Assembly: GCA_002189035.1 (NCBI GenBank)
Contig: NEEC01000019.1
Location: 186,001 to 250,000 of the forward strand
From: Utricularia gibba
Lineage: Eukaryota > Plantae > Magnoliophyta
Direction: 5' to 3'
Length of the DNA stretch: 64,000 nt
The notes beneath the pieces are model-generated. The model was not told where the DNA came from. It saw nothing but the letters and a program-made list of their open reading frames with translations, and searched no databases. The first letter of the stretch is position 1. Each line of letters begins with the position of its first letter. Below, one piece after another: positions 1 to 51,734 of this stretch. The position numbers were made by a program, and so were the translations under genes.

Positions 1-107
1 ATTAATTCCTGTGATTTTTGTAGTAGAATAGCTAGGTTTATAAATTTCTTATGATGCGTTGACTGTACTAGACCGCAACATTTAGCAACTCATTCCAACG
101 TTCATCA
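1..107 (+). mobile_element. 3' end of the 5' LTR of an Athila-like Ty3/gypsy element (LTR family A type)
   Basis: Ends ...CGTTCATCA at 107, 3 nt before a PBS. Shares TAGG-TTATAAATTT..TGAT and terminal TTCATCA with family A LTR ends at 11485 and 13527. Confidence 0.85.
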
Positions 108-110
108 AAA

Positions 111-128
111 TGGCGCTATTGCCGGGGA
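111..128 (+). other. Primer binding site, tRNA-Asp type
   Basis: TGGCGCTATTGCCGGGGA right after the LTR-terminal CA; differs at 2 positions from the Athila-type PBS TGGCGCCGTTGCCGGGGA. Confidence 0.85.
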
Positions 129-156
129 ATGGTGTCTATAAATTTCTCTGTTTTTA

Positions 157-1755
157 ATGCATTTACGTTCCTTTGCAGGTGCACTTGAACCTCTTGATTT
201 GGAGATCGAGAGGACCGAAAAATTACTGAGAAAGAAGCACAATCAAAGTCAGCAAGAGGCTAAGTTGAGAGCCATAGAGATGGCTGACACACCACCAAAT
301 AACCAACAGCTTGTGAATATCTTGGAGAAGACCATTGGGGAGTATGAGTCACCAGACCATACCTACCGAGGGCATTGTATCACCTTTCCTACATCAGCAA
401 TTAATTTGAAGTTGAGGCCAGGAACCCTTGCTCTGTTTCCCAAGTATTATGGGAACAAGAATGAGGATCCTCACATGCATATTGATGATTGTATTGCTGT
501 TGGAGCTGTGCTGCGACCCAAGGACGTGACTGAGGATGATTTACTACTCAGAGTCTTCCAATTTACTCTTGAAGGACATGCCAAGACGTGGTTCAATACA
601 CTTGAACCCCGAAGTATTAGAAGCTGGATGGAAATGAAGAAAGAATTTTTAAATCAGTTTTTTCCTACCTCTAGAGCAGATGAAATTCGAAGCAAAATTG
701 AAAATATTTTTCAGGATTATGATGAGCCTTTACATGAATATTGGGACAGGTTTACAACTCCTCTTTCGAGCTGCACACATCATGGATTTGATAAGTTGAA
801 GCAAGTGAAGTGTTTTTTGAAGGGTTTGACTGCTGCACAAAGAGACAAGTTGGATTTTTCTACACATGGTAATATGAGTACTCTTACCCCATCTGAAGGT
901 TGGGAGAAAATTAAAGAAATGGTTGGACATTGCAGGCATTCTTAGTCTCGGTCTCGAGCCCAACACCAAGTGCATGAAATGGGGATATTGAGAGAGGATG
1001 AAGCAGCAAGAAATGACAAGGATATTGCTGAATTGAAGGATATGGTGAAAGGTTTATTTCTTGTTCATGCAAAATCTGTGCCTTGTGAAGTATGTGGAAT
1101 TCTGGGACATACTCCAGATCATTGCTCCATGAAAGGAAATCTGGAATAACCACTTGAAGGAGTGAATGCAATGGGGTATATGAATAATAGAGCTGATTAT
1201 TTCAGGCCCAAGAATGACCAGCGTTTCGAGCCTATGAGGAGTCATCCCAATTTTAGTTGGAGAAGCACCAACGTTGAAAATCCTCAACATCTGGGATTTA
1301 CTCAATCGCAGTAACAAACAGCACCACCAATTTCGTTTCAGCAAGGACAGAGTGTTCAACAGGGGAATAGATATCCAAATAAGCCATATCAGCCCCCACA
1401 TCAGAGAGTCGACCAGCCAAGCACTTCAGGTGTTAAACCACCTCCTTCAACTGAAGAAATGATGAAGATGATGCTGGAAAACATGGCCAGACGTGATGCT
1501 GAACAAGCAAAAAGGGATGTTGAATCTGAGAAGATGATGAAGAGTCTTGAGAGGCAAATTGGCCAACTTGCTACAGAGCTCACAGAACTGAAAGGAAATT
1601 CAGGGAAACTACCATCTCAGCCCAATGCCAATCCAAAAGCAAACATTTCTGCTATTGAACTTCATGGGGGAAAGCAACTACCTGACCGAAAGGCCCCTAC
1701 AAGTCATAGTAAAGTGGCTGAAGGTGTTAAAATTAATTCTGAGGATAAGGTGTAG
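157..1755 (+). pseudogene. gag: Ty3/gypsy gag (retrotransposon gag domain), disrupted
   Basis: Contains FPKYYGNKNEDPHMH, LLRVFQFTLEGHAKTWF, SWMEMKKEFLNQFFP and GKLPSQPNANPK. In-frame stops at 943 and 1753, with more between. Confidence 0.92.
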
Positions 1756-1866
1756 CATGGAAAAGCAGCTGGGGAACCTGTTGTTGAGATCAAGAAAACG
1801 CCTCCTTTCCCTAGAAGATTACAAGCTAGAGCAAGGCAAGAAGAGAAGGACTCTATAATTATAGCC

Positions 1867-2544
1867 TTGGACTCTGCAATGATTACCATGAAGGCTGTAG
1901 ATTATTTGAAGCAAGTGCCGAAAGGGATGAAAGTATTGAAGGACTTGTGTAGTTCGAAGAGGAAGAACAAGGATGAAGAATTGATCAAAGTCAGTGCTCA
2001 GGTCTCCGCATACCTGACCCAACCGATGCTAGAAAAATGTTCAGACCCTGGAACATTTTTTGTACCTATCCAGGTAGGAACTATATTCATCAGCAGGGCG
2101 ATGGCGGATCAAGGTGCTTCAATCAACATGATGCCTTATGAAGTTTATCTAGCACTAGACTTGGAACCCCTCAGGCCAACAAACTTGAAATTGCAGCTTG
2201 CAACCAGATCTGTGGCCATTCCTGAGGGTATTGCTGAAGATGTTTTAGTTCGAGTTTCTAACACTTGCTATCCATGCGATTTTGTTGCTGTTAAAATGCC
2301 ACCAGCTAGGGTGAATGATAATACTCTAATTCTAGGATGCCCTTTCCTAGCTACTGCAAATGCTGAAATTGATTCTAGGAAAGGAGCCATCACTATTGGT
2401 TATGCTGATGATATCTCTATCTTTAAGACCAATGAAGCTGCAAAGTTCCCTGATGATTTTGCACCTGTGACTGGAGTTGATGTCATTGATGAGCTGGTGG
2501 GGGAAGTTTTCGATTACGAGCAACATGATATTCTTGAAATCTAA
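1867..2544 (+). pseudogene. pol: Ty3/gypsy aspartic protease region
   Basis: Contains CSDPGTFFVP, AMADQGASINMMP (D-x-G-A-S active site), EDVLVRV and LILGCPFLATANAEID. Confidence 0.92.
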
Positions 2545-2610
2545 GAAGTCGAGCTTGAAGAGGAGGATGCTGAACACTTAATTCTGGAATGTTTCATTGA
2601 AGATAAAGAC

Positions 2611-3603
2611 TTGGTGAAGTTTGGAGAGGTGACTAGTGTTGCACCACCAGAATTGAAACCATTGCATTCACATCTCAAGTATGCATTTATTGGTGACAAT
2701 TCAAAGCCGGTGATTATTAGTGCTGATCTTTCCTATGAAGAAGAGATGAAGCTGATGGATGTTCTCAAAGCTAACAGCAAGGCCATCGGCTGGACATTGG
2801 ATGACATCACCAGAATTAGCTCTTCAGTCACAATGCACCGAATTTATCTTGAAGAGGGAGCAAAACCGGTCAGACAACCTCAAAGAAGGCTTAATCCTAC
2901 CCTCATGGAGGTAGTGAAGAAAGAAATCCAGAAGCTGCTGAAAGCTGGAGCGATTTATTCGATTTTTGATAGCACATGGGTATGTATTGACTACAGAAAG
3001 CTGAACGAAGTAACAAGGAAGGATCATTACCCTCTACCATTTGTTGACCAAATGTTGGACAGGTTGAGCGGTAAGAGTTTTTATTGCTTTCTTGATGGGT
3101 ACTCAAGGTATAACCAGGTTGCTGTGGCACCGGATGATCAAGAAAAGACGACCTTTATCTGTCTCTTTGGCACATATGCGTACAAGAAGATGCCATTTGG
3201 TCTCTGCAACGCCCCAGCAACATTTCAAAGGTGTGTCACCAGCATTTTTTCGGATTATATTGATGATTTCATTGAAGCATTCATGTATGACTTTACTGTG
3301 CATGGGACTAGTTTTGATGATTGTTTGAATCATTTGGAACTTGTGTTGAAACGTTGTGTTGAGAAGGATTTAGTTTTGAACTCTGAAAAATGTCATTTCA
3401 TGGTATGCCAAGGAATTGTACTTAGGCATGTTGTTTCTGAAGCAGGTCTTACGGTAGATCCTGCTAAGGTAAGTATTATTTCTGGTTTACCATATCCACG
3501 TGATGAAAGAGGAGTTCGTGCATTTTTAGGCCATGTCGGATTTTACAGGAGATTTATTAAAGGTTTTTCTCAAATTGTTCGACCACTAACCAATCTCTTG
3601 TAG
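2611..3603 (+). pseudogene. pol: Ty3/gypsy reverse transcriptase, inactivated
   Basis: Contains CIDYRKLN, KDHYPLPF, FLDGYSRYNQ and MPFGLCNAPATFQRC. The catalytic FMDD reads FMYD, and the segment normally found between DSxWV and CIDYRKLN is deleted. Confidence 0.95.
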
Positions 3604-3666
3604 AAGGATGCTGAGTTTATTTTTTCAGATGAATGTTAGCATGCTTTTGACACTCTCAATGCAGTA

Positions 3667-4218
3667 GTGACATCAGCTCCTATCATACAAGCGCCCAATT
3701 GGAGTGAGCCCTACCATGTGATGACTGATGCATCTAACTATGCAGTAGGAGCTGTGTTAGGCCAGAAACTTGATGGAAAAGACACTGTTATCAGCTATGC
3801 TTCCAAAACCTTGGATAATGCTCAAGCAAATTACACTACAACCGAGAAGGAGATGCTAGCTGTTGTATTTGCCTTGGAAAAGTTCAAAAGCTATTTGTTG
3901 GGTAACAAAGTGATTGTGCATACAGATCATGCCGCCATCAAACACCTCATGTCCAAGAAGGAGACCAAACCGAGGCTTATGAGGTGGGTCTTATTACTGC
4001 AAGAGTTCAATGTGGAAATCAAGGATAAGCCTGGGAAGCTCAATGAAGTTGCAGATCACCTTAGTAGAATCGAGCAACCCATGGATGGTATTCCAATTGT
4101 TGAAGAATTTCCAGATGAACAACTCTGTGCAATTAAGGCTGATGCAGGGAAGACTAGTGAGCCGTGGTACGCTGACATAGCCAATTATCTGTGCACTGGA
4201 GGATGGCATTGGACTTAA
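3667..4218 (+). pseudogene. pol: Ty3/gypsy RNase H
   Basis: Contains [42 protein letters not shown] and NEVADHLSR. It follows RT directly, with no extra RNase H, which fits Athila rather than Tat. Confidence 0.95.
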
Positions 4219-5474
4219 AGAGTTATGAGAAGCTGAAGTTGAAGAGTGAGAGTAAGCACTATTTCTGGGATGATCCCTATCTGTGGAAAAATTGTGCTGA
4301 TGGTGTTGTGCGAGGCTGCTTCGCTGAAGATGATGTTCAGCAAGTATTGGCATTCTGTCATACATCTCCTTGTGAAGGGCACCATGGTCCTAACTGTACT
4401 GCCAAGAGGTGCTGGATTGTGGTTATTATTGGCCAACAGTTTTCAAAGATGCCAAGTCTTACTGTAAGAGCTGCGAGAACTGCCAGAGAACAGGGAATAT
4501 CTCAAACTAGCACGAAATACCAATGCAGCCAATTGTTGTTCCAGAAGTGTTCGACGTGTGGGGTATAGACTTTATGGGCCCCTTTCCAAACTCTGATGGC
4601 TATGAGTATATTCTGGTGGTAGTGGACTATGTTTCAAAGTGGATAGAGGCAATTCCCACCAAGTCACAAGATACTCATTCAGTCATACGTTTTTTGAAGA
4701 ATAACATCTTTGTGAGGTTTGGAACACCTAAAGCCTTGATCAGTGATCGTGGAAGCCATTTCTTTAACAAGGCTATGGAGAGACTACTGAAAAGCTATGG
4801 AGAGACTAATGAAAAGCTATGGAGTCTGGTACAAGCCATCTAACTCTTACCACCCTCAGACCAATGGGTAGGCAGAAGTTTCTAATCGAGAGATCAAGCA
4901 AACTTCGGAGAAGACTATGACTTCCTCTCGTAAGGACTGGAGCTCCAAGCTGAATGACACCTTGTGGGCAATTCGCACAGCCTTCAAAACTCCCATCGGT
5001 ATGTCTCCTTTTCATCTTGTATATGGTAAACATTGCCATTTGCCCATTGAATTAGAGCAGAAGGCTAGATGAGCAATCCAGCAAGTGAACTTTCAAAGTA
5101 GTGGTGATTTGAGGAAGCTCCAACTTTTAGATCTTGATGAGCTAAGACATGAGACCTACATGAATTCTAAGATCTTCAAGGAACGCACGAAGCAGTTCCA
5201 TGACCACCAAATCTTGAGAAAACACTTTGAACCTGGACAAAAGGTATTATTGTTTCAGTCTAAACTCAAACTTCACCCAGGTAAACTGAAATCTCGTTGG
5301 GAAGGACCTTTTGTGATTAAACATGTGAATTCTAATGGTTTCATTGAGTTATTTGATAGAGACATGCATAGCTCATGTACTGTGAATGGTCACAGATTGA
5401 AAGTGTTCCATGAGCTTATGATCGACGAAGTGGGACACCCTGTGGATGTTCAACATCCGGTGCCATTACGATAA
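4191..5474 (+). pseudogene. pol: Ty3/gypsy integrase, frameshifted, no chromodomain
   Basis: Contains an H-H-C-C zinc finger, [44 protein letters not shown] and VNGHRLK. Several frameshifts, including a 22-bp tandem duplication at 4772-4815. Confidence 0.95.
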
Positions 5475-5552
5475 GTGGTCGATAAAAAACTAACAAGGTC
5501 ACCATAGGATAGTTCACGCAAGATCCATGCAATTTCAAAGGTGCACCGTTGA

Positions 5553-7370
5553 TTACACAAGAGTCTTGTAATGCTTCCACAATGGGTGTTCCTCGTCTAT
5601 TGGACGTTGACCTACCCGACGGCGATCGACGTGCGTGGGTATATCCATTTGGTCAATGAGAGCTTCCAGGAACGTCCTAATATCTCCCCCTCGAACCAGC
5701 GAACAATCATTGACCGCGGTGTACTTGAAGGTGGTTGGGAATATGGCATTTTCGGGCTGTCGAATGAAACTAAACAAGTGAAATAGGATGCAAGATGGTG
5801 GAGAATGAGCACAACCAGAAACTCACCGGATTGTGTGTACGGCGCATCATCGATGAGAAGCGTATTAAGACGGTGATATTTGCCCTTGAACTCTTGGTTG
5901 GCGCCCCATACATGATTCAAAAGCTTAAGCTTAACTATGTTGTTCCTGTTGTCGTGCACCGGATAGCCGGTGTCTACACACCTGGATTCATGCCATTGGA
6001 AGACGAGCTTGCTGGCTGGTGCAGTCTCTAGTAACCACCGAATTACATCGTGCAATTGTTCACTGCCACATGCCATCAGAAAAAAAAATGTCAGCAGGAA
6101 TGCGGTCCCTTGTCTGCTAGGTGTTCAGTCTTACCGCCCTCTTGAAGACTAGATGACGACATCAAAGTGTTCCATGCAAAACTGTATCAACTCACGTGCA
6201 CCTGGTCGAAGATACACTACAACCACAAGAAATAGTACTAACACATGCACCAAATATTAAATGCATATCAATGACATTGCATTACCGTTTCGCCTGTAAA
6301 TGACGGCATCCAGCTTTGGTGCTGCCCATCTGACTTCGCGAGGATACACATTGTCCGCAAGTACGCCATTCACGTCAAATATAAGCAACTTCCATGGTGG
6401 GGCCGTGTTATCACTCGACGGTCCACCATATGACCACCTTGTTTCATACCATACAAGCTAACCACAGAGATCAAGATTCTCTGCGTACAGTCTGTCCATT
6501 TGGATATACTTTGTAGTGGCAACACCGCACCCGTCGTCATGTGTCGAAATCAATGTTGGCCCCTCCGTGTTGCCCCCGACTTCTGGCTGCACATCTTCAT
6601 CCTCTTCATGGTTCACCTCCTCAAGATCATCATTTGTACTCCTATGTTGTCTACGGTGTCGAGGGGTTCCGCACCATAGATGCTGTGTCCTAGGGGCATT
6701 GATGAACGGGGGCAAGACGTCCTCCAAGGACTTTGTTCTGCAAGAGAACAAATTCACAAACCTCCTTGCCGCACGTTTTGGCAATACCTCTATGCCTACA
6801 ACGCAAACAACAAAAAAACATGAGTATTGTTCAACAAGACGTGTGAATATCCGAAGTAATTGTTTATGATTACCTGATGGGTGTCCCACATTCTCTGACA
6901 CTGTCAACGTTGTTGGCCATTCTACAGCGGTGGGTGGGTATACCCATACAAAACTGGTCCACCAATCTTCATATGCGCTTCTCACGTCTGTAACCAGTAC
7001 CACACCAGGTTTTCCATGAAGTGAGTAGTGCGCACTCCCCTTGCGTTGGCCACAAAAAGAAACCGCAAAGAAGACACGCATTTTCGGGGGTATGTCCTCC
7101 TCTTCAAAGATCTGCAGAAATGCAGAACGTGTGCCACAAAACACGGTATGAGGTGGGAGAGTGGGATTTGGAGTGCAGCAAGTATTTGCACCAAGAAAGG
7201 GGCGGGGGGAGTCGCAATCCACACCGAAAGTGCTCGGTGCTGACGGTGAATCCCGAACCGCCAACTCTGGATGGCGGTTCGCCGTCCGACATTTCGCCGG
7301 GCTGTTTATCCCACATTGTGTTACCGTTGGGAATTGAGAGGCGGACACGTAGTTTCTCACACGTCAACAT
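5553..7370 (-). pseudogene. Six-exon pseudogene: Transposase_28 (putative gypsy-type)-like N-terminus, acidic linker, and FCP1/NIF-type HAD phosphatase domain
   Basis: Predicted exons 7370-6874, 6795-6510, 6437-6286, 6216-6135, 6062-5827 and 5756-5553, with GT-AG introns of 78, 72, 69, 72 and 70 nt. N-terminal motifs: KLRVRLSIP, FRCGLRLP, LQIPLSHLIP, AF..IFEEEDIPP....F, HYSLHGKPG, YEDWWTSFVWV. C-terminal motifs: KLLIFDVNGVLAD, VYLRPG..LIQFCMEHFDVVI(W)SS, LVFQWHESRCVDTG, NTLLIDDAPY, NPPENAIFP, GGDIRTFLE, GQRPIDEEHPLW. Lesions: two frameshifts at ~7100-7210, W>stop near 6150, frameshift near 5835. Confidence 0.8.
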
Positions 7371-7684
7371 CTGGAAAACAATAGACGTGTTACTCGACGA
7401 TGACAACGAAGAATTTGAAATGCAAAGGGCAAAGGTTCCTACCGTCGCGACGCTGTTCTAGAGAGGTTGCCGTGGAGACTGTTTTCACGGTGCTGCTGCA
7501 CGTTTGCCGAAAGGGTGGAGTTGGATGGGCAGAATTAATGAATTTTTTTTGGAAAGTGCACAATGTCAGGCGCCTTTATTGTGCGCAGGGGGGGTATTAA
7601 TAGCGCTGGACGGTTGTCAACCGCCCTTCACATTTAATGTTGGATAACTGCAATATTTTATGGCATTTTGTTTTTGGAACTCAG

Positions 7685-8120
7685 AACACCGGATTATGTT
7701 TTCGCGGTGCTGTGGAATAAGTAGCGTACCTCAGGCATTTGAAAACACCGCATATTACGGATCGCGGTGTTTGGTCAAATGGAGTATTATTGTACTACCA
7801 ATCACCCACGCTAACATGTACGAGCTGCGTACACATCTACTTCTAAAATTTGACAGCACCGAATACGATGAAACATCCGGTGCAGCACTGACGCAGCATA
7901 GCCCAAGCGTACAGAAGCACCGGAGTTTACGGATCGCGGTGTTCGGTCAAATGACGCTTTGCTGTACTACAAAATACCCTCACTACTATGCACCAGCTTT
8001 ACACTCATCTAATCTTTAATTTTTATGAGCACCGGATACGATGAAACACATGGTGCTACCCACAACGTTGATGTCGTACAAGCCTATGTGGAAGTACCTC
8101 AACTGAAGATCGCGGTGTTA
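7685..8120. repeat. Degenerate ~173-bp tandem repeat containing CACCG-N13-16-CGGTG palindromes
   Basis: GATCGCGGTG starts at 7760, 7932 and 8108; CACCG(A/G)ATACGATGAAACA starts at 7857 and 8030. Confidence 0.8.
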
Positions 8121-8330
8121 GCTCCAATGATCCACCGTGTGTTATCGACACTATGGTACAATCCCAACAATTTGTGCATCAACTACCAAATACTTTGCAA
8201 TTTCAAGTTCAAGTCGGAGTATAAACGACACGATAGGTTCGGTACGGGAATTAAGGAAAACCACTAGCATGACAATGTCTAAAACAGTGCTACACTAGCA
8301 GCGCCTGCGGGATGCCAGCCACTCAATGTA

Positions 8331-9452
8331 TGATAAACGGAAATTTTCCTAATATCGTTGCAAATAAAAATAGAAAATCCGTATCAAATAAATTTATAAT
8401 CCCTAATCTACACAAAATACAAATTTGGAAAACTTGTATAGTGGATATCGGGGTCGATCACAAGGAGATGGTGCTTGTCAAGTGTTTTAGTGAGTGCATA
8501 ATTCGGGATAACAGGAAGTCTAAGTCTAAGCTCGGACTAACAGTGGTAAGCAAGTTCAGTAAACAAGGTAGGTAAGCAATATTTGGTCTTAACGCTTAGG
8601 TAACAGGTACTGGTTCTAACTCAGAATAATATTAAGGTGCCTTAAGGGTCTATAGGTGGTGTAGTGTCAAAATCCCTAATTTAATCTACCATGTTCCCAC
8701 ACTCACAACTTCAAATAACCTAAGTTTACCCAGGTCATTCACCATGTTTTCGGCTAAGCTAGTCCTCCATATCATCACCAACATTTTAATTAGGTCTACC
8801 CGCATGCAAAGCATATAGAACTAGGTCTAGCTGGTTCTACTAGTTCCACCCCGAACTAACACCTATTGCTCACGTCTTGATTTATTGGTCTACCTCTAAA
8901 TCAAGCATATAAGTTGTGAAGCTACTTGTTCCCCTCTTTAGGTCTACCCATGGTTTGATAGAAACAAGAACTAAGGAAGAATGGTAAATTTTATTAAGAT
9001 TCATAGACCCCCATCACCATGCTTCACCTCAAGGCACTCCTCAGGTTTAGCTACTCATGCTTTGAAGGTAAAACATGATAACATTAACATAAAGCAACGA
9101 AAATGTCAAGAACATCGTGAAAGAGTTGGTTGTAGAAACTGAAAACATCAACAAACGAAAATAAAGGAATAAGAGTTCTGATTTCTGTCTGCTACTGTTC
9201 CTAGCGCTGGACTAGGCTCTTATGCTGTTCTTGAGGATGAAGATCTTCTTCTCCTCTCCTGGTTCAGTACTCGTCGTGTTGGGGGAGAAGCCCCCTCCTT
9301 GGGTCTGCTCTCCTCTCTTCCTTCTCTTCTCTCCAAAAATATCTTCACATCTTTTTTCCATTTTTCAAAATCAGTCCACTGTTTTTGACATTCGTACTGT
9401 TCCTGACCTGAACCTGCAGACTGTAGGCGGCTGAATATTAATCATGTCTCTT
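8331..9452 (-). mobile_element. Family A (Athila-type) LTR, 5'-truncated
   Basis: Starts TGATAAACGG, the reverse complement of the LTR 3' end. It is the reverse complement of ~10320-11485, and homology stops near 9452. Confidence 0.9.
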
Positions 9453-9459
9453 CCTTGTG

Positions 9460-10047
9460 TCTTGCTAATCATGCCATCTATTCCATACCTGATTCCCTCC
9501 GGCAGATGTCGTGACATCTTCTGGATCACTCGTGTCCCCAGCTTCATCCTGGAAGTCCAATGGGACCTGATCCTCCAGGGGATCGACCACCATCTCCTTT
9601 CGAATGAGGTTATGAAGTAAAGGACATGCCAATACAATGCGGTTCTGTGTGTCTATGGAATAGTAGCTAGCCGTCCGTAGTATACCCCACTGCATCTTCA
9701 TCAAGCCCCAAGCTCGTTCAATCACATTTCTGGCTGATGCATGCTGCATGTCGAATAACTCCTTCGCATTCTGGGGTGCTCCATTTCCCTGGCCCCCCTC
9801 CTTCAAGTGGTAACGGACTCCACAGTATTGTGCCAAAAAGCCCTCCCTATTGGCGTATCCATTGTCACATAGGTAATATGTTCCTATGTCATCACGTATA
9901 CCAGGTGCATAAAATCAAGTGAAATACCTGGGCGTACACGGAAGCCGTCGGATCGTGATAGTGCATCGTTGAGACCTGACTATTTGCAGCAGACCCCTCC
10001 CACCCAGCAAGCACATATATAAATTTCATGTGTTCATCACATACACA
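9460..10047 (-). pseudogene. PIF/Harbinger DDE transposase, C-terminal fragment
   Basis: Contains CVCDEHMKFIYVLAGWEGSA, RYHLKE..G.PQNAKELF and RNVIERAWGLMKMQWGILR. Frameshifted and cut by LTRs on both sides. Confidence 0.9.
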
Positions 10048-11485
10048 TGATGAATCATATGTATATAAAATCATTGGAGTAAGAAAATTATGCTTTTGAA
10101 TCATATTTTAAGTGTTTATCTTATAGTTTTTAGTATTTTTACCAAATTTTAGGACATAATGTGATTTTATGTGTTAATGGGATAAATCCTTTGATTTAGC
10201 CCATCCCATGTTATTAACATTTTGTCTAGTCTAGCGGCAAAGTTCTAAAATCAGGGAGGAGACATGAATTTCGTGCATGTAGAGATTTGGAAGAATGGGC
10301 AGCATTAAAAGAGGAGACATAATGCACTGTTCAGCCGTCCACAGTCTGTAGGTTTAGGCCAGGAACAGTACAGATGTCAGAAACAGTAGACTGATTTTGA
10401 AAAATGGAAAAAAGATGTGAAGATATTTTTGGAGAGGGAGAAGGAAGAGAAGACGGGCAGACCCGAGAAGGGGGCTTCTTCCCCAACGCAAAAAACACCA
10501 ACTAGAAGGGGACTTCTTCCCCAATGCGAAAAACACCAACCAGAAGGGGGGAAGAAGGCCTCCATCGTCAAGAACAGCACCAGAGCGCAGTCCAATGCTA
10601 CTGTTCCGGGCTGTAACCAGTAGCAACCGGGTGAAAGAATAATCTTTACTTGCTTCCAATTTTCTGAACATTTCTAGTTTTTGTAGCAGACTAGCTTACA
10701 ATGTTTCTGTTATTTTTGCCAGCTTATATGAATGAAATCGTGTTTTATTTCCCAAGCATGAGTGGCTAAAGTCTTAGATGCCTTAAGGTGAAGTGGTGTG
10801 GTGTGTGCTTAGGGTTGATGATGAAATTTATTTGTATTCCTTAACTCTTGTTTCTAACAAACCATAGGTAGACCTAAGGAGGGAAACAAGTAGTTTCACA
10901 ACTTAGATGCTTGGTTTAGAGGTAGACCAACAAACCAAGACGGGAGTAGTCGGTGTTAGTCTAGGGTATAACCAGTAGAACCGAGTAGACCTAGTTCTAT
11001 ATGCCTTGCATACGGGTAGACCTAATTGCAATTTTGGTTATGATATTGGGGACTAGCTTAGTCAAAAATATATTGGTTATGAATGACGTGGGTAGACTTA
11101 GGTTATTTGAAGGTGTGAGTATAGTAAGATAGTAAATTAAGTTAAAAATCTTAGCATAACACCACATGTAGATCCTTAAGACATCCTCGTATTATTCTAA
11201 GTTAGAACCAGTACCTGTCACTTTAGCGTTGAAACCTGATATTGCTTAACTACTTTTTTTATTGAACTTATTTACCACTGTTAGTCCGAGCTTAGACTAA
11301 GACATACTGTTATCCGAAATTATGCATGTAGTAAAACACTTAGCAAGCACAAGTTTTTCGTGATCGACCCCGATATCCACTATACAAGTTTTCTAAATTT
11401 GTATTTTGTATAGATTAGGGATTATAAATTTATTTGATAACGAAATTTCTATTTTTGGAATGACATTAGGAATTTTCGTTCATCA
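10048..11485 (+). mobile_element. Family A solo LTR (~1.44 kb)
   Basis: TGATGA...TTCATCA; both ends align with the copies at 28095-29428 and 31133-32509. No matching TSD (ACACA vs GCCTC). Confidence 0.88.
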
Positions 11486-11619
11486 GCCTCTTTTTTAAAG
11501 CAAAAATTAATTAACTTTTTTATTTTAATTATATTATTTTTTTCATTCAATAAATACTAGTCTTGTTTTCATTTATTTTCATCTAGTTTTTCTATCTCAT
11601 TTTCATCTCAAATCGTAAT

Positions 11620-14250
11620 ATGAGTCTCTTTGGTCATGAATCTTTTCAAAGTTCTCAAAATTCTACAATTCTTCCTCAAGTAGATCAAGAAGCCGAAAAC
11701 AATATCAACATCAATCAGGATTTTATGGAAGCTGTAGCAAATGATATGGATCCAATGGAGGAATCCGATTTCACATCATCTTCTAAAAAGCATAACAAAT
11801 CTCTGGCTCTTTTTTAGTCCAGTTTAACTTGAGGGTGAAAATTCAATCAAATATAAGTATTACTGTAAAATTTTTACACTTGGTGGTGGAGGTTCGTTAC
11901 TCCTTTGCCTATTAAACAAACTCAATTTTATTTCGAAAGTGGAAATCATCGTAGTATTTTTAAATTTTAATTAGAAAAAATTAAAATAATGATTATTCGT
12001 TTGATAATTATGAAAGAGTGTACTTTTAATATTTTTTAATGCGATTATATTCAAGAAGTACTTCAATAACTCAATTCTAGTTATAAAAAAAATTCAGCGT
12101 TAAGAAAAGTAGATATATTGTTTTGAATGAATTTAAATCTATACGTTTAGAAATTATTTGTATATTTGCAAGTAGAGAATGCATGTTTGCTTTGACTCAT
12201 GATGATTGGAAAAGAAATAAATGGTAATCATTATATTGTTCTTACTTATTTTTAGATAGATAGTAAATGGATTATGTATAAAAGAATTTTAGCTTTTAAA
12301 TCATGAGAATTACCATATAATAGTTTTGCTATTGCTAAATTTATCACGAATATTTGTAAAAGTTGCAATATTTTTAAATGAATTATTTTGACTTCTTTAG
12401 ATAATGTTATTGTAAACATTAATGTTATTGAAATTTTAAAAGTTGATATGAATTCTTTTTTAAACAGTATATTTTTCATACAAGATATGCTTATCATATT
12501 TTAAATTTATGTATTCACAATGGATTGAAAAGTTGGGCAATGCAGCATAGGTCGCAACACAAATCCCAAGGAGCCGTATATGAACAGTATAGTGGCAGAA
12601 GATGGGGCCAAAGTCTGAAAAGGAGTACACACAAAATCCAAAGAGGGAAAAAGTAGGATTTTGGACAAAATGGGGGACAAGATGAAGAGAGAAAAAAGAT
12701 CTCCTCCATTGGAGACACGCAATTCTTTCTAGAGAAGATTTTCTGGGGAGGAAGAAGGATGAAGACGAACATGAACTAGGTTGATGCTTGAAGATGATTT
12801 TTTGTTTTCCAAAGATTATTACTCTTAGCTAAGAATAGCTAGCGACATTTCCAGCTTTCTGTTGAACTTTTAAGTTTCCTGCTTGTTTATTTTCTGGTAG
12901 TCGACTGTAAGATGAGTACAATGTGGATGATGTTTTCTTTTCTACTTTCGTTTATCTTAAGTATGAGTGACTAAGTACTTAGGGGTGTCTTGGAGTGAAA
13001 GAGGGATAGATGTGCTAATCAATCTTTAGACCTAATCAACCATAAGTCACGCCACTTCCTTAACAAATCAGGATAGATCCAGGAGAGAGAAGTAGTGAAA
13101 CCCAACTTAACAACCCTAATTAGAGGTAGACCAAAGATTAAGGGGAAAACAAGAGTCCAGGTAGACCTAGACCTTGTGAGTTAGTTGTATGATTTATGGT
13201 TTGTGTAAACTTGTTTAATGATAAGCATACATCCCCTAGGAGTCCCAAGGCATCACCCATTTCATATTAGAAACCACCGAGTCTCAAGCTTAATATTTTT
13301 CTTTACTGCATTCTATCGTAGTTTTGCCTTAATCCTAGTTAAGACCAAATCCACCAACGTAATACTAATTCCTTGCATTGACCTTCTCATGACAAGCACC
13401 AATCTCCTTGTGTTCAACCCTAGTCTACTATGCTCATATTTTATTTGGATGTAAATTAGGTTTATAAATTTTATTTGATAGGAAAAATTTACAAATTAAC
13501 GACTTTGTACAAATTTTTCATTCATCAAGTGCCTTACAAAATAATTAAAAAAATTCCTTATTGCACTAATTTTTTAACTGATACTTATTATCCAACTTCA
13601 AATCTTTTAGTTCAATGTATTAATCAAATTATATTGGTTTTTTTTCCAAATTTTGAAACAATTCTTATTCTTGGAAAATGATTAAATGTATGCATACAAA
13701 ATTTTAGAAATATTTTCAACAAATTCCATGTTTATTTTTGTGACAACATTTTTTATCCTAAAAATAAAATAAAAGATCTTGATGTTATGCTAACATCTAT
13801 TTCTAATAATATGAATACTCATAATACTTTTTTTGATGTGGATCATATGAATTCTTCAACTATTGAAGTTATTTGTTCTATGTATACATTATATGAGAAA
13901 AAAAGGTTACTACTAAGGCACCTATAATATACCTATTTCTTCTGCTTCAACATCTAATTGAAATTCTGTCTTTCGGCATTTACTTTTTAAATGATGAATG
14001 AACAAGAATATATAAACCATATTTTCTCTTCTTTCACATATAATGACTTTGCTTTTTACACTAAGGCACCTATAATAATTTCAATGGATGATTATTTTGA
14101 TGTGTTGAGTTGGTAGAAATCCAACACCACAAATCACCCCATCTTGGGTAGATTAGCTAAAAATATCTTGACTTTTCCGACATCTATTGTTGCATCGAAA
14201 AGTACTTTTAGTATAGATGATCGAACACTCATAAAGATGAAATCAAAATT
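11620..14250 (+). pseudogene. Degenerate hAT transposase (BED finger, catalytic core, dimerisation domain), interrupted by an LTR
   Basis: Decayed KW.M.KRILAF, TSLDN and R..YHILNLCIHNGL lie before 12527; YYPTSN lies after 13528. FDVLSW.KSNTTNHPILGRLAKNILTFPTSIVAS.STFS is at ~14095-14215. Confidence 0.85.
12535..13527 (+). mobile_element. Family A LTR (subfamily of 44505-45631), 5'-truncated
   Basis: Reverse complement of 44505-45492 (e.g. CAATGCAGCA.AG.TCGCAACACAAATC.CAAGG); ends TTCATCA at 13527. Confidence 0.88.
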
Positions 14251-18916: not shown

Positions 18917-21900
18917 TAGAAATATTATTTATAATTTATCGGTTAAATCCGTAACCGATAATAAATGGTCCGGATTTGGATTCCATCTTTTAGAGACCAT
19001 TTTATGAGAATCAGAACCGATTATTTTTTAATTTTATATAAATATATTATATCAGATTTATTGTATATTAAAATTCATAATACAAGTAAGAAGCTTAAAA
19101 AGATTAAAAATACTTTCAATTAGTTTTTAATCTTTTGGAAAATTCACATAGTTTTCAAAATTGATAATATCATAATACAAGTATCATTTGAAAAATTAAA
19201 AAGATTAAAAATACTTGAAACAATAATATTTAAAGTTCATAGACCAATCTACTAATATAACATCAATGACAAAGCAACAAAATAATCCTTAAAATAAAAT
19301 TTAAAGTCCTACGAAATAATTTTTTTCTATTTAATAATCTAGTTAACTTCATTTCATTGCCTGATGAAAAGATAACCTTATCGAATTTCAACCAATTAAG
19401 AAGCTTTCACTGTCAAGTGCCTATGATGCTAAAGCTAAAAATAAATCAATAAGTAAATAATTAAAAACATGAATAATTAAGTATTTTCAATAATCATACA
19501 AAAATAATTTAATAAAAATATAATGATATACCTTCAATTTCATTATCTTCAATATCAGAATCATCAAACATTGATTGCTCTCCTTTTGCTGTCAAATTTG
19601 TACCTTGCATTAAAAACATCTATATAATCATTTTAAAAATTGAAAACATAATAAAAAAATGAATATATTTAATTTACCATCAATGCTACTCCACAACCAA
19701 CGTCTAGTACACATCAAAGCCTCCACTATATCACTACAAAGTCTGTTACATGTACGACAAATTATTTTTCCACTTATACTAAAAGCAGATTCTGATGCAA
19801 CAGTCAAAACTGGAATTGCCAAAATATCCTGAGCCATTTTTTGTAAGATCGGATAAGCACCTCCATTCATTTGCCACCATGCAAGAACATTAAAATTTTC
19901 AGCTCTTGGTAACACTGACTCATCCAGATAACAATCTAATTCTGATAAAGCAGACTTTGCAACAATCTAATTCTTCTCAGCAACAAACTGATCAAACTTT
20001 GACAAAGTGTTACATGTCTTGTTTGAAGATAAGCCACTCAAAGCCACAAATGAACCACATTGATCTTTTGTATGTAATGAAGAGATCATATTAGGAGTCA
20101 TCTTATAGACATTTAAAATATCACGACAATTTCTCCAAATCTCTTCAATCCTCTCACCAAGAATCATATGACATTTTATACCGTGGATCCAATACAGCTG
20201 CCACTCCAAGAATCATATGACAACTTTCCCAATATTGATTAAACTTTGCCGCCATCTCTTCAGCCGTAGATGAAATAGCATAATCCTTACTTTTCAACCA
20301 ATCATCAATGTTCATCTTTATGTCACAGATAACAGGAAAAAAAATACTGCAAGTCGGATTTTTAGTACTAGAGAAAAGCAGAGTAGCTTCATAAAAAATC
20401 TTCAATTTATCATATATTGTTTCTACTTGCTGCCAATCCTCTTCAGTAATGTAACATTTGTAATGTTTATCCATATGATGAAGTCGAGGGAATACACTTT
20501 TATAGAGAATGGCAGTTTCAAGCATTAAAAATGTAGAATTCCAATGGGTTTTACAGTAAACTGATAACATCTTTATAGAAACTATGTCACATTGATGAGC
20601 AGCCTGTTCAAATTTCTCTACTCTTTTAGGGGAGGCAATCCAAAACACTACACTATCACGAATGCTTTCAATAGTACCCGCAATCATACTAAGCCCCACT
20701 TGCACTATTAAATTCAAAATATGAGCATTGCAACGCAAATGTAATACCTGTCCATGTAATAACAGATCCTTATTCGGAAAACTTTGCAAAAGCTTTGGAA
20801 AAATAGCATCATTTGTTGCACAATTATCCGCAATGATTGTAGATAATTTTCGATCTGTATTCCAAGATACAAATGTTTCCATCAAAATAGCTGATAACAT
20901 TTCAGCCGTATGTGGAGTTGGGACATAGGCAAACCTGAATAAAAAAAAATAAATCAACAAATATAATGAAGTAATAAATAATAAAATTAAAAATACCTCA
21001 AAATACAATTCTTCAACAACCAATTATCATCAATATAATGTGCTGTAATTGCCATGTAACTTTTCTTTTGATTTGTAGCTGTCCACATATCTGTTGTAAT
21101 GGCAATTCGATTCTTCAGCTTTCCCAACAATGCATAATTTCTGTTTTTAGTGTTAATATATAATTTCATAATATCCTTCCTCAAAGTATGTCTTGAAATA
21201 ATGTTGAATGCAGGATTTAAACCATGGGAATATTTTCGAAATCCATAATGATCCACCATGCTCATTGGATAATCATGTAAAATGACCACTTCTGCAAGAT
21301 CCTCTCTTGATTTTTCTGGATTAAACATGTGGCTTTCAACATTGCCACTCTTCCCCAATTTGATCAAACATTGTTTTATATCCACATTCCCAAATTTTTT
21401 TGGACAATGCAAATCAACATGCTTCATCAAATTCGATGTTCCTTTCTTTGAATCAGCTCCAAATATTTTTTTACAATTATTGCACTCTGCCATCCATAGT
21501 TGAGTTTTCTTATCTTGATATCTCTTAAAATGATCCCAAACACGAGAAGTTAATTTTCTTTTTCTACTAACTCCACTTGGTTCTTCAATATTCTCCAATC
21601 AAATAACATCATTTTCACTATTCCCATCGATCACAACATGAGTAGCTTCCTTTACATAATCATTTCCCACCGAAGGTATAGATTCTTTTGATATACCATA
21701 ACTAGCTTGAAAATTGGTATTGAAATCCATGTGTAATTAAAACAATATTCAAATCTGTAACTAACACAATACAATCCAATGCATTTTTTTTCAATATAGC
21801 AGCAGAAAATAAAAAAAATATTAGAAAATTTGTTTGGCATAGCTCTCAGTAGAAATCAATATAAATCAACAGATAATTCAAAAACTAAAGAAATGAAATG

Positions 21901-35500: not shown

Positions 35501-37470
35501 GATCATAGCTGGGTGGTTTCTCCAATAGTTTCTCATAGGGAGATAAGTTCAGTCATTTCATGGGAGTTCAGTTGAGTAGATAGGTTGCCGTGAGGATGGC
35601 ATCACCCAAGAAGAATTTAGGCAATTCTGCCTAAAATAATAAGGCTTTGGTGATGTTGAGGAGGTATTGGTGTCTTCTCTCTACAATGTCTTTTTTTCTT
35701 TGCCGTCTCAACACAACTGTTTTGATGGAGAATTTCAAGGCATATCAAATCAACTAGTGAGTATTCGAGGGCTTGATCACTCCTTATTGTTTTAATACGT
35801 TTTCCAAACTGATTTTCAATCGTTGTGATAAACGTTGTGATGAGGGATGGTGCTTCCGATTTCATTCTCATCAGATACGTCCAAGTTGCTCGGGTTGTGT
35901 CTTTGATGATGGTAAGAAAGTAACGATATCCTCCATGAGCTCGAGTTTTGTACAGCCCCCAAGTGTCTAGATCCATGATGAGTGGGAAAGGGAAGTTTCC
36001 ACAACTTGGCTCATGGGCATGTAGTACAGACATGTGTTGGTAAACTATGAATCATGGGATGTGTTTTTGAGAGCTGTGAGATCACCGAGTGGAATGGGTG
36101 TCCCATTCGGTGATGCCATAGGTCAAAACTGCAAGAATTAACATTCGAAGCATGTAAATCATGTTCAGATAGCATCAAATTAGAGTGACAGCAAGAAGTA
36201 TTAGGTTATGAATGTTTAGGAAGAAAAAAATGCTGCTCAAATACGTAAAGCCCAGATTGAAGTTTAGCTTTCCCAATCGTCATCTTTAGATTCGAAGAAT
36301 CCTGTAGTAAACACTTAGTAGCAAAGAACATAGGAAGAACATTGCTGTTAGATTACAATTGAGAGACGTCAATGAGATTTACAAAAAATGTCAATATGTG
36401 TAATACGTTGTGTAGTGTTATATGACTATTGAGTCTAACTGTTCCTTTATGTAGAACTTGAACAGTGTGATTATTAGGAAATCTCACTTATGCTATGAAA
36501 GGAGTGTAGGATAGCTCGAGGTTGTAGCACATGTGTTCACTAGACTTGTCTATGATCCATGTGTGTGTGGTGGTTTGTGCAGAATTCACTAAGTTACTAG
36601 CATTGGCATTTATTGTTGGGTTCTCTTCTGGTTTTGCAGAAGTGTGGATTTCTTGTTCTAAGGTGAAGGCTCCCTTTGTCCAACATGTATTCGCCATTTG
36701 GTTGTTCTTAGTAGATCTTTGCAACAAGTTGTGTAGTTGACTCCTGGTAATGGAGATTACTTCTCCATCAATTGTTTGATCCTATGGCACAGAGCTGCTA
36801 TTATTGGCATAATAAGTATGAGGTTTATTTCCTTTGAGCTTTTTGTCTGTATTGAACTCAGGGGGCAATCTGATAATTTTTCAACATTGATCAATGTTAT
36901 GGTTGGTGCGGCAGCAGTTGGTGCAATATTTCCCTAAGTTTTTGTTTTTGTTTTTAGTGGGTAGAGGGCCTTTGTTCTAGAAAGCTGATGCTTCTAATTG
37001 GGTTGGGATAATAGGTTTCTTGAGATGGCCTTCTTCCTGAAATGTAGCTTGATAGACTTTGTTGATATTGGCAGCAATTTCTGATTTAGTAGCTATTGTC
37101 TCAGAGAGTGAAATTCAAAATTGATACCAGTCAAAAATTTATGTATAAGGTCTTTTGTGCGTTGTTCTTGCAGAGGTTGAAAATAGCCGTTGTTGCACTT
37201 GCCACATTTGCACAGACCAGAAGGGCAAGATGTATGATATTCTTGCCATAAAGTGGTTAGCTTATTAAAAAATTGATCGATGGACAGATTACTTTGAACC
37301 AAGCTGCCGATTTCATGTTGTAGATGTGCAACCCTATCTTCATTTGGGTGGGTGAATCTTTCTTTGAGTGTTTTCCAGATTTCTCTAGCTATTTCATGGT
37401 GTGTAATGGTAGTTGAGATGGTTGGCTCAATACACCTATGGTTATTAAGATCATTGCGAAAAATGGCTCA
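32510..37470 (-). mobile_element. Degenerate Ty1/copia internal region (gag, integrase, RT, start of RNase H)
   Basis: gag: SIDQFFNKLTTLWQE..C.CGKC..IHKFLTGIN. INT: MDLDTWG, RYFLTII.D.TRATWTYLM, IKTIRSD, GIKGFKLYDL..IFISRNVIFHE. RT: EPKNY.EA, IGCRWVFKNK, RLVAKGY, FDYEETFSPV, QLDIDNAFLNGEL, LLVYVDDII. Confidence 0.93.
34080..35233 (+). mobile_element. Probable Angela-lineage copia LTR (solo or partial) nested in the copia element
   Basis: Interrupts the host between the integrase tail and RT. Contains CCTATAGGGTCACACAC, GTGGATACCATAGAGG and AAATTCCGCTGC motifs typical of Angela LTRs, and ends AAACCCAAACA. The left boundary is uncertain. Confidence 0.55.
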
Positions 37471-38135: not shown

Positions 38136-39477
38136 TGTTGCGTGTCGTTTCCACAACAAATTTTAATACTTTTAAAACTCGTAAAACACAAAAGCATAGT
38201 ACGGGTGTCGAACACAGGGAGTTGTTTTTGAGTGAAAGGTGAGGCACCCCAAATACAACTGTCACGATTTGTAAACGGTTTTGAAGGTAAAAAGTGTGAG
38301 AAACATTGGTGATGAAGCTTGAGTAAGGGAATAAGAGGGTTTTGAACAGACAACTGAAATAAACGTAAGCGATGAATCTTAAATAAAGTAAGTGTTCCTG
38401 GCTTTGGAATCCTATCCAGCTATGTTCATTGCATATTCACTCTTCTTTGGTCCTCTCGAGTACTCGATTATAGGAATAAAGAATTGCCTACCCTCTCTTA
38501 CACTCTCTTCCAAGAAGGCACGAGAATAGCCCGATGTTGCTCCTCCTTGGACGAACGTGAGAATAAGAGATACTGCCAGCGTACCCTCACGGCCGAATTG
38601 GGCGTGTGTGCCCGAGTGTTGCCAATGACCCAATGAGTCCAGATACGAGGTCACTAACTGTTCATTGATCCTGAGGTACGGCCACAGACAAAACATTGTC
38701 TTTCTCCTGCCAAAAGGGCTCGAGTTGGTGCTTTCCATCTTGCTCCTCTCCAAAATCCGCTGGTAATGATCAGCTAACCATGAACCTTGAATAAAGGGAC
38801 TGTTACAAAAAGACTGCAACATAGTCGCGCGAAGACATACGAAACCCGTTCGGATTCAAAGAAAATGTGAAGATAAGCTAATGAAACATAGATCTGATGG
38901 TGTTCCAACCCAGAAACGGAAGTTTCTAGCTGCGAACAGCCATACAAACTAAAGAAAATGAAACAAGGTTCTAGAGAGAAGCCAGAAGAAAATTCCTCTA
39001 GAGAGAGAAATAAAAGGGAAAACTAAACTAACTACCACTCACGTCTGAGCAGAATGGAACTTCAATGAGAGTCTGAGATTTCGTGTTCTTGTAATTATGC
39101 TGAACTTGGGATGACTTGCAAGCAACGTCTGACACTGGTACGCTAATGATGCCGCCTGTCAGAGACTCCCATGATCCGCACATCAAGGCTCATGATTAGG
39201 CGTCTGCAGTCTTCCGGAAATCAAGGGAATGTCAGCTCGGGAAGATCCAATTTGTCGCCATCTGATACCCTCTTTCTCTCACTTCCTGCCACGTGTGCAC
39301 CTCTAGAAAAACTCAATTAAAATTAGTAAAATTATTACATAAAATACCAAATTTAGGATAATTACCCTAAACTAGACAAAAACCTAAATCTCATATTATA
39401 GACCCCTAATTAGACACTTCTAATCACAATTAGACATAAAAACAACCTAAGAAATAGTAAGAAAATGACACTTAACA
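38136..39477 (-). mobile_element. Family B solo LTR (inner, 1342 bp)
   Basis: TGTTGCGTGTCG...GACACTTAACA, inserted 200 bp inside the outer copy; no TSD (AGGGT vs ACGAA). Confidence 0.9.
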
Positions 39478-39605
39478 ACGAAAATAAACGTCAGCGATGA
39501 ACCTTAAATAAAGTGAATATTCCTGGGATTGGAATTCTGCCCAGCTACGTTCGTCACGTCTCAACTCTTCTCTAGTCTTCTCAAGTACTCGGTTATAGGA
39601 ATAAA

Positions 39606-41428: not shown

Positions 41429-41738
41429 AAAGCCTAAAAGATAGTGAGAAAATGACACTTAACATCAATTGTGTCTTATCTAATTATTCCTACTAAATAA
41501 AAGGAAGTTTCTCCTTTCACATGAACCATTTTAATCCTGGGAGTAGTTGATCAAACCAAATGATCAAAAAGACCTTTAAGATATTGGATTATCGATCCAT
41601 GATTTTTTATTTTTTGTTTTTATTACTTTTCAACCAACAATCTTAAGGTATTTCTTTGATGACACCCGATCCCAATGTTGTTTCAAGCAATCCTACTTCT
41701 GTTTCTATTTTTGTTTCCATTAGTGTCTTTTCCAAAAT

Positions 41739-48186: not shown

Positions 48187-49077
48187 TGTTGAGTATCATT
48201 TTCTAACTATGTTTTAGATCATTTTAGATGTTTAAATGTAATTAGAATTGTCGAATTATGAGTTTATAATATAAGATTTAGGTTTTATCTAAATTAGGAT
48301 AATTATCCTAAATCTTGTATTTTATTTAATATTTTTGTTAATTTTGTTAAAGTTTTTCAAGAGGCGAACATATGATAGGAATTGTGAGAAAGAAAGTAAC
48401 AAATGACAACAAAACAGATATTCCAGAATTGACATCTTGATCACTACCAACGAGTTTTGAAGAGGAACAAGATGGAAAACACCAACTCATACCCTTTTGA
48501 AAGGAGGGAGACAATGTTTTGTGTATAATTGTACTTCAAGAACAATGGACAGATAGTGACCTCATATTTGTACTCATTGGGTCATTGGCAACACTCGAGT
48601 ACATGCGTGCAATTCAATCCATGAGGATACGATGGTAGGATCTCTTATATTCATATTCGTCCAAAAAGGAGCAACATCAGACTATTCCCGTGTCTTCTTA
48701 CAAGAGAGTGTAAGGGAGGATAGACAATTTCTTACTCCTATAACCGAATACTTGAGAAGATCATAGAAGAATAGAGATGCAACAAACATAATTGGGCAGG
48801 ATTCCAATCCTAGAAATATTCTCTTTATTTAAAATTTATCGTTTAAATTTATTTCCATTGTTTATTTATAACCTCCTTATTTCCTTACTCAATCTTCATC
48901 ACTTACGTTTCTCGTACTTTTTACTTTACAAACCATTTACAAATTGTGATAGTTGTATTTGGTGCAACTTCAACTTTCATTGAAAAACAACTCAATGTAT
49001 TTGACACCGTACTACGCATTTTGTGTTTTATGAGTTTTAAGAATATTTAAAATTTGTTGTGGAAACAATGCGCATCA
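48187..49077 (+). mobile_element. Family B solo LTR with an internal deletion, inside an older family A-like LTR relic
   Basis: Starts TGTTGAGTATCATTTTC (consensus TGTTAAGTGTCATTTTC) and ends GTGGAAACAATGCGCATCA. Confidence 0.85.
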
Positions 49078-51509: not shown

Positions 51510-51734
51510 TTATAACTAACAAATATGTTGGGCTTTAGGGTTATTTGTTTGGGCCGTGTATTAAGGCTTCGGTGTGAGGCTCAATCATACACCCAATTCC
51601 CAAGTCATCCGGCCCGTTATTTAGGTCCGATCCGGTCACTCGTGTAAATTCACTGAAGCCGAGACGGGCATCCACGTCTGATTCTGTTATCGGTAGAAGC
51701 CATTTTCTTGAGATCATTTGATTCCATTACCTTG
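51510..51734. promoter_or_regulatory. Short bidirectional promoter with site II and telo-box-like elements
   Basis: TGGGCT at 51529, TTAGGGTT at 51535 and TGGGCC at 51550, between divergent RPL7 and the next gene. Confidence 0.7.

Follow-up and report, generated by a model that had tools for sequence, protein, structure and literature searches.

What kind of gene lies between an Athila-type integrase and a block of diverged repeats in the plant Utricularia gibba, on the strand opposite to the integrase and ending in a domain of the plant NIF family? The question is raised by positions 5553-7370 of a stretch of 64,000 nucleotides (assembly GCA_002189035.1, contig NEEC01000019.1, positions 186,001 to 250,000 of the forward strand), which is referred to here as the window. 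The evidence supports a mobile, multi-copy fusion in which an N-terminus resembling Transposase_28 (TRP28) is joined to a HAD domain from genomic host DNA. The favoured explanation, given a probability of about 0.45, is that a gypsy retrotransposon has this accessory gene in antisense in its 3' region and that the gene acquired its HAD domain from the host.

Structure of the gene

The initial annotation had proposed a minus-strand frame of six exons and approximately 485 aa with five GT-AG introns of 69-78 nt. This frame stands, as the exons read in the window add up to 1457 nt or about 485 codons and the introns measure 78, 72, 69, 72 and 70 nt in gene order. Four of the five introns are a multiple of three nt long and therefore one frame spans 7129 to 5831, open apart from five stops. 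The parts are, in gene order:

7371..7442, minus strand: possible further (sixth) intron, 72 nt, immediately 5' of the ATG
6874..7370, minus strand: exon 1, TRP28-like N-terminus, profile match at about 7117-7241, frameshifts near 7200 and 7125
6796..6873, minus strand: predicted intron 1, 78 nt, phase 1, donor and acceptor rank best in the region
6510..6795, minus strand: exon 2, acidic linker, in the same frame as exons 1 and 3, multi-copy depth
6438..6509, minus strand: predicted intron 2, 72 nt, weak, contains a TAG at 6458-6460
6286..6437, minus strand: exon 3, HAD motif I (DVNG), domain begins near 6391
6217..6285, minus strand: intron 3, 69 nt, phase 1, at the host position before FKRP
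6135..6216, minus strand: exon 4, HAD motif II, stop at 6149-6151
6063..6134, minus strand: intron 4, 72 nt, phase 2, at the host position after SSR, 4 indel rows among copies
5827..6062, minus strand: exon 5, HAD motifs III and IV, frameshift near 5835
5757..5826, minus strand: intron 5, 70 nt, phase 0, at the host position within NP/P, 5 indel rows among copies
5553..5756, minus strand: exon 6, last part of the HAD domain, stop

Introns 3, 4 and 5 of the annotated set are well founded, since they lie at positions and phases of host introns (see below) and the deletion of intron 3 or 4 raises the HAD score by 17 or 18 bits and closes the alignment. Intron 2 is less secure, as its acceptor is AAG with 29% T; it lies outside the HAD domain and its removal leaves the HAD score unchanged. 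Given these weak sites, a point mutation may account for the TAG at 6458-6460, which would then not be intronic. Exon 1 and the HAD exons share a frame with this single TAG between them, the splice sites of intron 1 are strong and no Met precedes motif I, and on these grounds it is highly probable that they form one fusion gene. A 136-nt variant of intron 1 that ends at 6738 was rejected, as it moves into a frame that stops near 6615.

The HAD domain and its host origin

A phmmer search with the frame read against 1.84 billion representatives gave 170 matches at E 0.001; PF03031 is present in all 150 of the matches listed and none of these exceeds 47% identity. The initial annotation had called the C-terminus a complete plant NIF-family HAD domain and had proposed profile searches for both halves of the gene. 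For this half the claim is borne out, with the spliced read scoring 196 bits across positions 8-217 of a HAD profile made from 137 domains cut from the phmmer matches to the window gene itself, a score that is therefore not fully independent. The unspliced read also matches PF03031, albeit weakly (E 0.015-0.078), and a word-based protein search with the HAD part returned 478 candidates with none at E 0.01.

In the alignment the domain keeps motif I as DxNG (DVNG), the Ser of motif II, the Lys of motif III and the DD of motif IV, where the numbering of the motifs in the window gene is our assumption. DxNG is found in 136 of the 137 family HAD domains, which were selected with a pattern that requires the Gly and would miss DxDxT. 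Decay within the element was considered as the source of DxNG and ruled out, this being the norm of the host family; the motif is inherited from that family, as the donor family has it throughout. Pol II CTD phosphatases (FCP1, CPL and SCP) have DxDxT as motif I, and a structure search with one host-family member as query found UBLCP1 (PDB 3shq, E 3.2e-7), which we take to be a proteasome phosphatase, as the sole solved relative, and not FCP1 or SCP. The link to CTD phosphatases and Pol II that had been suggested for this gene is thus not sustained, given the DxNG of the donor family and its likeness to UBLCP1.

A scan of metagenomes kept 80 of 166 loci, all of them host-type genes of 33-42% identity, and five intron-bearing land-plant loci (L011, L047, L064, L065 and L069) were examined closely. 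Their introns lie before FKRP (phase 1), two codons past SSR (phase 2), past LLFCW (phase 0), past NP (phase 0) and, in four of the five loci, in SLG (phase 1), the contig of the fifth ending earlier. Introns 3, 4 and 5 of the window gene coincide in position and phase with the FKRP, SSR and NP introns of all five loci and the gene reads through at LLFCW and SLG, so that three of the five host positions are common to both. Because three host introns are kept in position and phase, it may be inferred that the HAD domain came from genomic host DNA and not from cDNA; the other two introns would have been either cleanly lost or never present in the donor. In a tree of 150 HAD domains, a comparison that the initial annotation had recommended, the window branch has a length of 2.46 against a median of 0.40 and its neighbours are two odd sequences (support 0.65 and 0.87). 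The tree therefore places a long branch beside odd sequences, and no donor can be named from it.

Elsewhere, two DxNG HAD domains are often found in tandem, both in loci of high GC content that lack introns (L001, L008, L020 and L057) and in plant-type proteins (P0002-P0006). Five gene models (P0024, P0025, P0118, P0065 and P0146) join it to CCCH zinc fingers, an RRM or a GeBP DNA-binding domain, which, provided that the models are correct, gives a hint of nuclear roles.

The N-terminus

A 63-residue stretch read across the frameshift near 7200 has Transposase_28 (PF04195) as its sole match among 24,736 Pfam families (E 0.018, profile positions 3-44 of 69). This match deserves more weight than its E-value implies because the family had been named in advance by the initial annotation. 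Published alignments of TRP28 give G21, P25, L34, P46, N47 and F55 as conserved residues (Vicient 2025, PMC11963269). In the window gene G, P, L, P and F stand in register at the published spacing, which amounts to five of the six, and at least five of six at this spacing occur at none of the 127,786 positions in the six frames of the window. The likeness to Transposase_28 thus holds at the level of residues and as the only Pfam match, although the score of 15.7 bits lies under the curated cut-off of 26.2 bits.

Searches with separate N-terminal pieces did not find Transposase_28 in Pfam, comparison of the N-terminus with the 150 NIF matches gave nothing similar (best E 2.3), and the second half of exon 1 had no usable match in the ESM Atlas. 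A single-sequence fold of this half reached a pLDDT of 49 and was set aside. In the literature TRP28 is reported solely in antisense and 3' of pol, from 506 Retand elements (PMC6317226; PMC11963269). Place and orientation are those of the window gene, which counts in favour of a gypsy accessory gene.

Copies, decay and selection

Contigs of four DNA runs, of which X1, X2 and X5 are named below, were aligned to the window at 80%, with contig depth serving as an indicator of repeats and not as a copy number. Two further runs that were presumed to be RNA yielded 0 contigs on the window, which says nothing for or against expression. The gene is clearly multi-copy, being covered at a depth like that of gag-pol; in run X5 it lies at about 1000-1600 across 5600-7200, whereas the flank at 11601-12000 has a depth of 71. 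In run X1 the summed depth is 130-227 over 3600-8000 and 19-81 over gag-RT, which hints weakly at joint movement of integrase and gene, and runs X2 and X5 are without such a pattern.

The window copy is dead, as had been noted, as its reading frame has a stop at 6149-6151 and is shifted near 7200, 7125 and 5835; the two N-terminal shifts coincide with indel rows at 7198 and 7123. Between 5150 and 6350, eleven indel rows are listed, of which nine fall inside intron 4 or intron 5 and two at the frameshift near 5835, while introns make up 211 of the 798 gene bases in that stretch. Of the 43 columns conserved at >=90% in the family, the HAD domain retains 35, and three of the eight misses are breaks private to the window copy. 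Its median identity to the family is nevertheless 36%, compared with 54% among family members. Since conserved columns are kept despite low identity and indels among the copies avoid exons, the comparison supports the view that the HAD domain has been kept under selection in the transposon family. Exon sites that differ between the window and other copies are non-synonymous in 16 of 22 cases (best-supported rows of 231 and 3270), which fits neutral decay of the window copy.

These data bear on whether the HAD exons were simply captured beside a TRP28 open reading frame (ORF), either without forming one translated protein with it or without a role. The weakness of intron 2 with its in-frame TAG, the lack of an annotated fusion protein among the 150 matches listed and the share of non-synonymous differences, as under neutral change of the window copy, could all be read in this manner. 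Such a passenger would, however, hardly be expected to retain 35 of 43 conserved columns at 36% overall identity or to show indels that avoid exons, and the HAD part alone has no start codon. A mere passenger is thus very improbable.

The retrotransposon in front and the junction

To the left of the gene lie the remains of a retrotransposon on the plus strand, beginning with the end of a long terminal repeat (LTR):

1..107, plus strand: 3' end of an LTR, ends CATCA, no second copy in the window
111..128, plus strand: primer-binding site, which we take to be of the tRNA-Asp type
142..5445, plus strand: broken Athila-type gag-AP-RT-RH-INT (PF03732, PF00078, PF17917, PF00665)
5445..5463, no strand: junction, private to the window copy or to a minority of copies, right side a half palindrome that is completed in other copies

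About 100 codons separate the RNase H from the zinc finger of the integrase, which leaves no room for an archaeal RNase H. Together with the tRNA-Asp-type primer site, this spacing supports the assignment of the gag-pol as Athila-type and non-chromoviral. An archaeal RNase H is present in 98% of Retand elements, which have a tRNA-Lys/Arg primer site, and tRNA-Asp is dominant in Athila (PMC6317226); the window gag-pol shows neither of the Retand traits.

The copy also carries an internal deletion in its RT at 2976-2990, where the stretch between 'DSTW' and 'VCIDY', which gypsy RTs presumably have, is missing and contigs of run X2 enter at 2978 from other sequence.

The join between integrase and gene is not the common one in the family. 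In the 12 of 145 loose-end rows that are listed, contigs of run X2 pass from the integrase into other sequence at 5448 (8 contigs) and at 5450 (2 contigs), four contigs of X2 and five of X5 arrive at 5451 from other sequence and complete the palindrome, and contig depth dips at 5437-5477. The initial annotation had placed the gene approximately 80 bp after the integrase stop, but the stop at 5472-5474 is read from sequence that was joined at 5445-5451 and is itself a product of the join. A unique junction had also been named as a sign of chance juxtaposition; this applies in part, as the junction at 5448-5451 is not the common one, but the loss of a short stretch inside a single element could account for it as well. 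Both breakpoints lie near gene ends, within about 30 bp for the integrase and 100 bp for the gene, and one small deletion is therefore favoured, which in the window copy would have taken out the stretch from the end of the integrase to the 3' palindrome of the gene.

The same junction could have arisen if the gene belonged to another gypsy family, of the Retand/Tat type, whose 3' region held an old PIF insertion; nested insertion followed by deletion, or else template switching, would then have brought it next to the Athila pol. An antisense TRP28 and 3' repeat arrays are hallmarks of Retand, the junction is uncommon, the locus consists of nested fragments that lack matching duplications, and pol and gene differ in CpG content. 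Observed/expected CpG is 0.29-0.35 in gag-pol, 0.85 in the gene, 1.12 in the spacer upstream of it and 0.59 in the transposase beyond. A transfer of this kind would nonetheless require two breakpoints that both happen to lie close to gene ends, there is no Retand-type pol in the window, and the X1 depth gives its weak hint, absent from X2 and X5, that integrase and gene travel together. It is accordingly judged distinctly unlikely.

The upstream region

The initial annotation had overlooked the transposase and the palindromic repeats described here, as well as the possible sixth intron of the gene. Beyond the 5' end of the gene a spacer is followed by a broken transposase, which is cut by LTRs of a second family:

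7670..8190, no strand: three diverged units of about 172 bp each, palindromic CACCG...CGGTG motifs, CpG-rich, upstream of the gene
8295..8330, minus strand: last codons and stop of a PIF/Harbinger transposase, left of the nested LTR
8331..9456, minus strand: nested 5'-truncated LTR of the second family, interrupts the tail of the transposase
9457..10047, minus strand: broken C-terminal half of the PIF/Harbinger transposase (PF13359, E 3.8e-11)
10048..11485, plus strand: LTR of the second family, cuts the transposase, no matching target-site duplication

The 172-bp units were recognised by alignment; Tandem Repeats Finder reported no array in 5300-8400. CACCG/CGGTG words occur 12 times each in the spacer and in the gene, where the Markov means are 1.75 and 4.25, but only 3 times in gag-pol (mean 2.09) and never in the transposase. 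None of 300 Markov resamples reached the count of the spacer or that of the gene. With diverged repeats upstream of an antisense ORF, the locus fits a Retand-type 3' region. The palindromic motifs flank the gene on both sides, at 7670-8190 and at 5451-5463, and the spacer is not depleted in CpG.

The two neighbouring LTRs at 8331 and 10048 were rejected as the 3' LTR of the gene's element, being only 67-77% like the 5' LTR end and of another family, the two compared ends of which are 92% alike. This Athila-like family has four LTRs in the window (8331-9456, 10048-11485, 28095-29400 and 31133-32478) that are 68-81% alike, and the three that were checked lack matching target-site duplications.

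The transposase has 98 relatives, mostly from Lamiales, the top-scoring one at 54%, and its N-terminal half is missing from the window. It ends 925 bp upstream of the gene on the same strand, and contigs of runs X5 and X2, whose shorter side has 35-79 letters, connect 8322-8324 with 9461-9504, which links it to the upstream region of the gene in other copies; the transposase may travel with the fusion gene. The gene could then be cargo of a PIF/Harbinger element in the place of the Myb/SANT partner, inserted in an Athila copy, with a deletion that removed the left end. The regions of the catalytic Asp and Glu (roles that we assume) that are present in the window look intact, Myb/SANT follows the transposase in three of three fused gene models among those listed, and introns in a DNA transposon need no special explanation. 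The order of transposase and then orf1 is typical of group A (PMC2213677). No Myb/SANT partner was found in 5400-8330 by tblastn with seven Myb-bearing queries at E up to 1, although it could lie past the junction in other copies, and no terminal inverted repeat was seen in the window, where both ends of the element are cut off. The transposase lacks the palindromic motif, TRP28 belongs to gypsy elements in the papers cited (PMC11963269, PMC6317226), and breakpoints so close to the ends of both integrase and gene are simpler as one small deletion. A PIF/Harbinger origin is therefore unlikely.

An accessory gene of a gypsy thus remains the preferred reading, against which a number of observations have to be weighed. 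On the side of the gene these are the weak splice sites of intron 2, the subthreshold PF04195 score, the replacement of the conserved TRP28 Asn by Cys and the absence of PF04195 from all 150 NIF matches listed. TRP28 is absent from what the available part of PMC6317226 lists for 1046 Athila elements. On the side of the locus, the window holds no paired LTRs, polypurine tract or 5-bp duplication for the gag-pol element, no contig among those listed bridges the integrase side and the gene side in other copies, the CpG contrast between pol and gene fits separate histories, and the same-strand transposase is linked to the gene's upstream region in other copies. Overall it is probable that the gene is carried by a gypsy, while its carriage by the particular Athila family in front falls a little short of an even chance.

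A proposed mechanism

It is proposed that part of a NIF/UBLCP1-like host gene, taken up as genomic DNA, became fused behind an accessory ORF and that two host introns were cleanly lost. The introns of an antisense gene are not spliced from genomic RNA, and in a gene antisense to gag-pol they would thus escape splicing and survive reverse transcription. The gene may be transcribed from its own promoter in the spacer, as is the case for gene23 of maize Grande (PMC7264820). TRP28 is predicted to bind DNA, its function being unknown (PMC11963269), and the TRP28-like front end could bind the palindromic repeats of the element and so carry the HAD domain to element chromatin. There the HAD domain, which retains the nucleophilic Asp, the Ser of motif II, the Lys of motif III and the DD of motif IV, may act as a slow phosphatase or as a module or trap that binds phosphoproteins, as Asn sits at the acid/base position in the whole host family, and would favour transcription of the element. 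It is likely that the protein helped its element regulate itself, and the more specific role of a tethered regulator is put forward tentatively.

A more elaborate version, which is improbable, has an Athila family with an antisense two-gene cassette behind the integrase, a palindromic array and anti-silencing in the manner of VANC, a protein of the VANDAL transposons. VANDALs are Mutator-type DNA transposons. The cassette would consist of the spliced TRP28-HAD fusion and the PIF transposase around the palindromic array, with TRP28 sitting on the array and the captured pseudo-phosphatase holding or dephosphorylating a nuclear host protein; its parts would thus stem from Retand, from the host and from a DNA transposon.

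Other searches and the remainder of the window

Viral contigs searched with exon 5, the RNase H and the spacer motif gave no match, and neither did the prokaryote genomes searched. In the 80 metagenome loci kept, the N-terminus and the transposase were not found and there was one weak integrase match, in L049.

Further along the window, hAT-like transposase frames with a zinc finger and a dimerisation region (19631-21598, minus strand) and copia-like gag and integrase fragments (35620-37467, minus strand) were recognised by eye. A tandem array with a 39-bp period (19+20) occupies 23769-24053, and another repeat occurs in both orientations at 27302-28014, 38249-41414 and 48283-48993, with tandem duplications of 908-1125 bp near 38350-41430. 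Likely host genes lie on the plus strand at 51657-52262, 60952-61281 and 62514-63703, which we take to encode, in this order, an unknown plant protein, a LYR-motif protein and a TORTIFOLIA1-like protein.

Relation to known systems and implications

The window gene resembles the TRP28 ORFs of Retand elements in five of six residues, in its antisense position 3' of pol and in the repeat array upstream, and differs in being spliced and fused to a HAD domain and in having an Athila-type pol in front that lacks the archaeal RNase H (Vicient 2025, PMC11963269; Neumann 2019, PMC6317226; Vicient and Casacuberta 2020, PMC7264820). The words 'phosphatase' and 'intron' are absent from the main text of PMC11963269. 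From the plant NIF-family (PF03031) DxNG HAD genes it has the whole domain with motifs I to IV and three intron positions and phases, but it stands apart by its median identity and long branch, its two missing introns and a replaced N-terminus; UBLCP1 differs from it in having a DxDxT motif.

A host enzyme domain at the C-terminus of a second ORF is also found in the Tat/Ogre-like elements of Phalaenopsis, non-chromoviral gypsies in which an AlkB/2-ODD demethylase ORF has been proposed to counter host control and its activity has been shown (Alvarado-Marchena 2022, PMC9289625). That enzyme is of another class and is described as an ORF and not as a spliced gene. The extra ORFs of Athila can likewise have a LOG/YgdH-type host enzyme domain fixed 3' of pol, although these are on the sense strand, have no TRP28 and contain another enzyme (PMC6317226, PMC9289625). 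PIF/Harbinger elements of group A have a second gene after the transposase on the same strand and internal tandem repeats occur in them, but the second gene in the window is not Myb/SANT and no terminal repeats were found (Grzebelus 2007, PMC2213677). For the proposed mode of action the parallel is VANC of the VANDAL transposons, which acts on motifs tandemly repeated in the non-coding DNA of its own element (Hosaka 2017, PMC5735166), a purely functional comparison in which binding by the window protein is a prediction.

Capture of host enzymes by gypsy accessory ORFs is therefore already known (AlkB, LOG-like), and the combination of TRP28 with HAD appears to be new. No paper listed in the literature searches deals with a TRP28-NIF fusion or with a plant gypsy or PIF element that has a NIF domain. 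Fixed host enzyme domains are rare in plant gypsy elements, and the 15 frequent extra domains described in the available part of PMC9289625 include no HAD, although its chart of rare domains may bear on the novelty. NIF is not among the extra-ORF domains in the available part of PMC6317226, where only ORFs of 250 codons were counted. Surveys of long ORFs would miss a spliced gene such as this one and more of them may thus exist. The fusion of TRP28 to an enzyme-like domain, with a candidate binding site adjoining it, suggests that TRP28 is a targeting module for attachable effectors. Little work has been done on the plant DxNG HAD family, and a transposon-borne copy that appears to have been under selection hints at a role of this family in the conflict between host and transposon.

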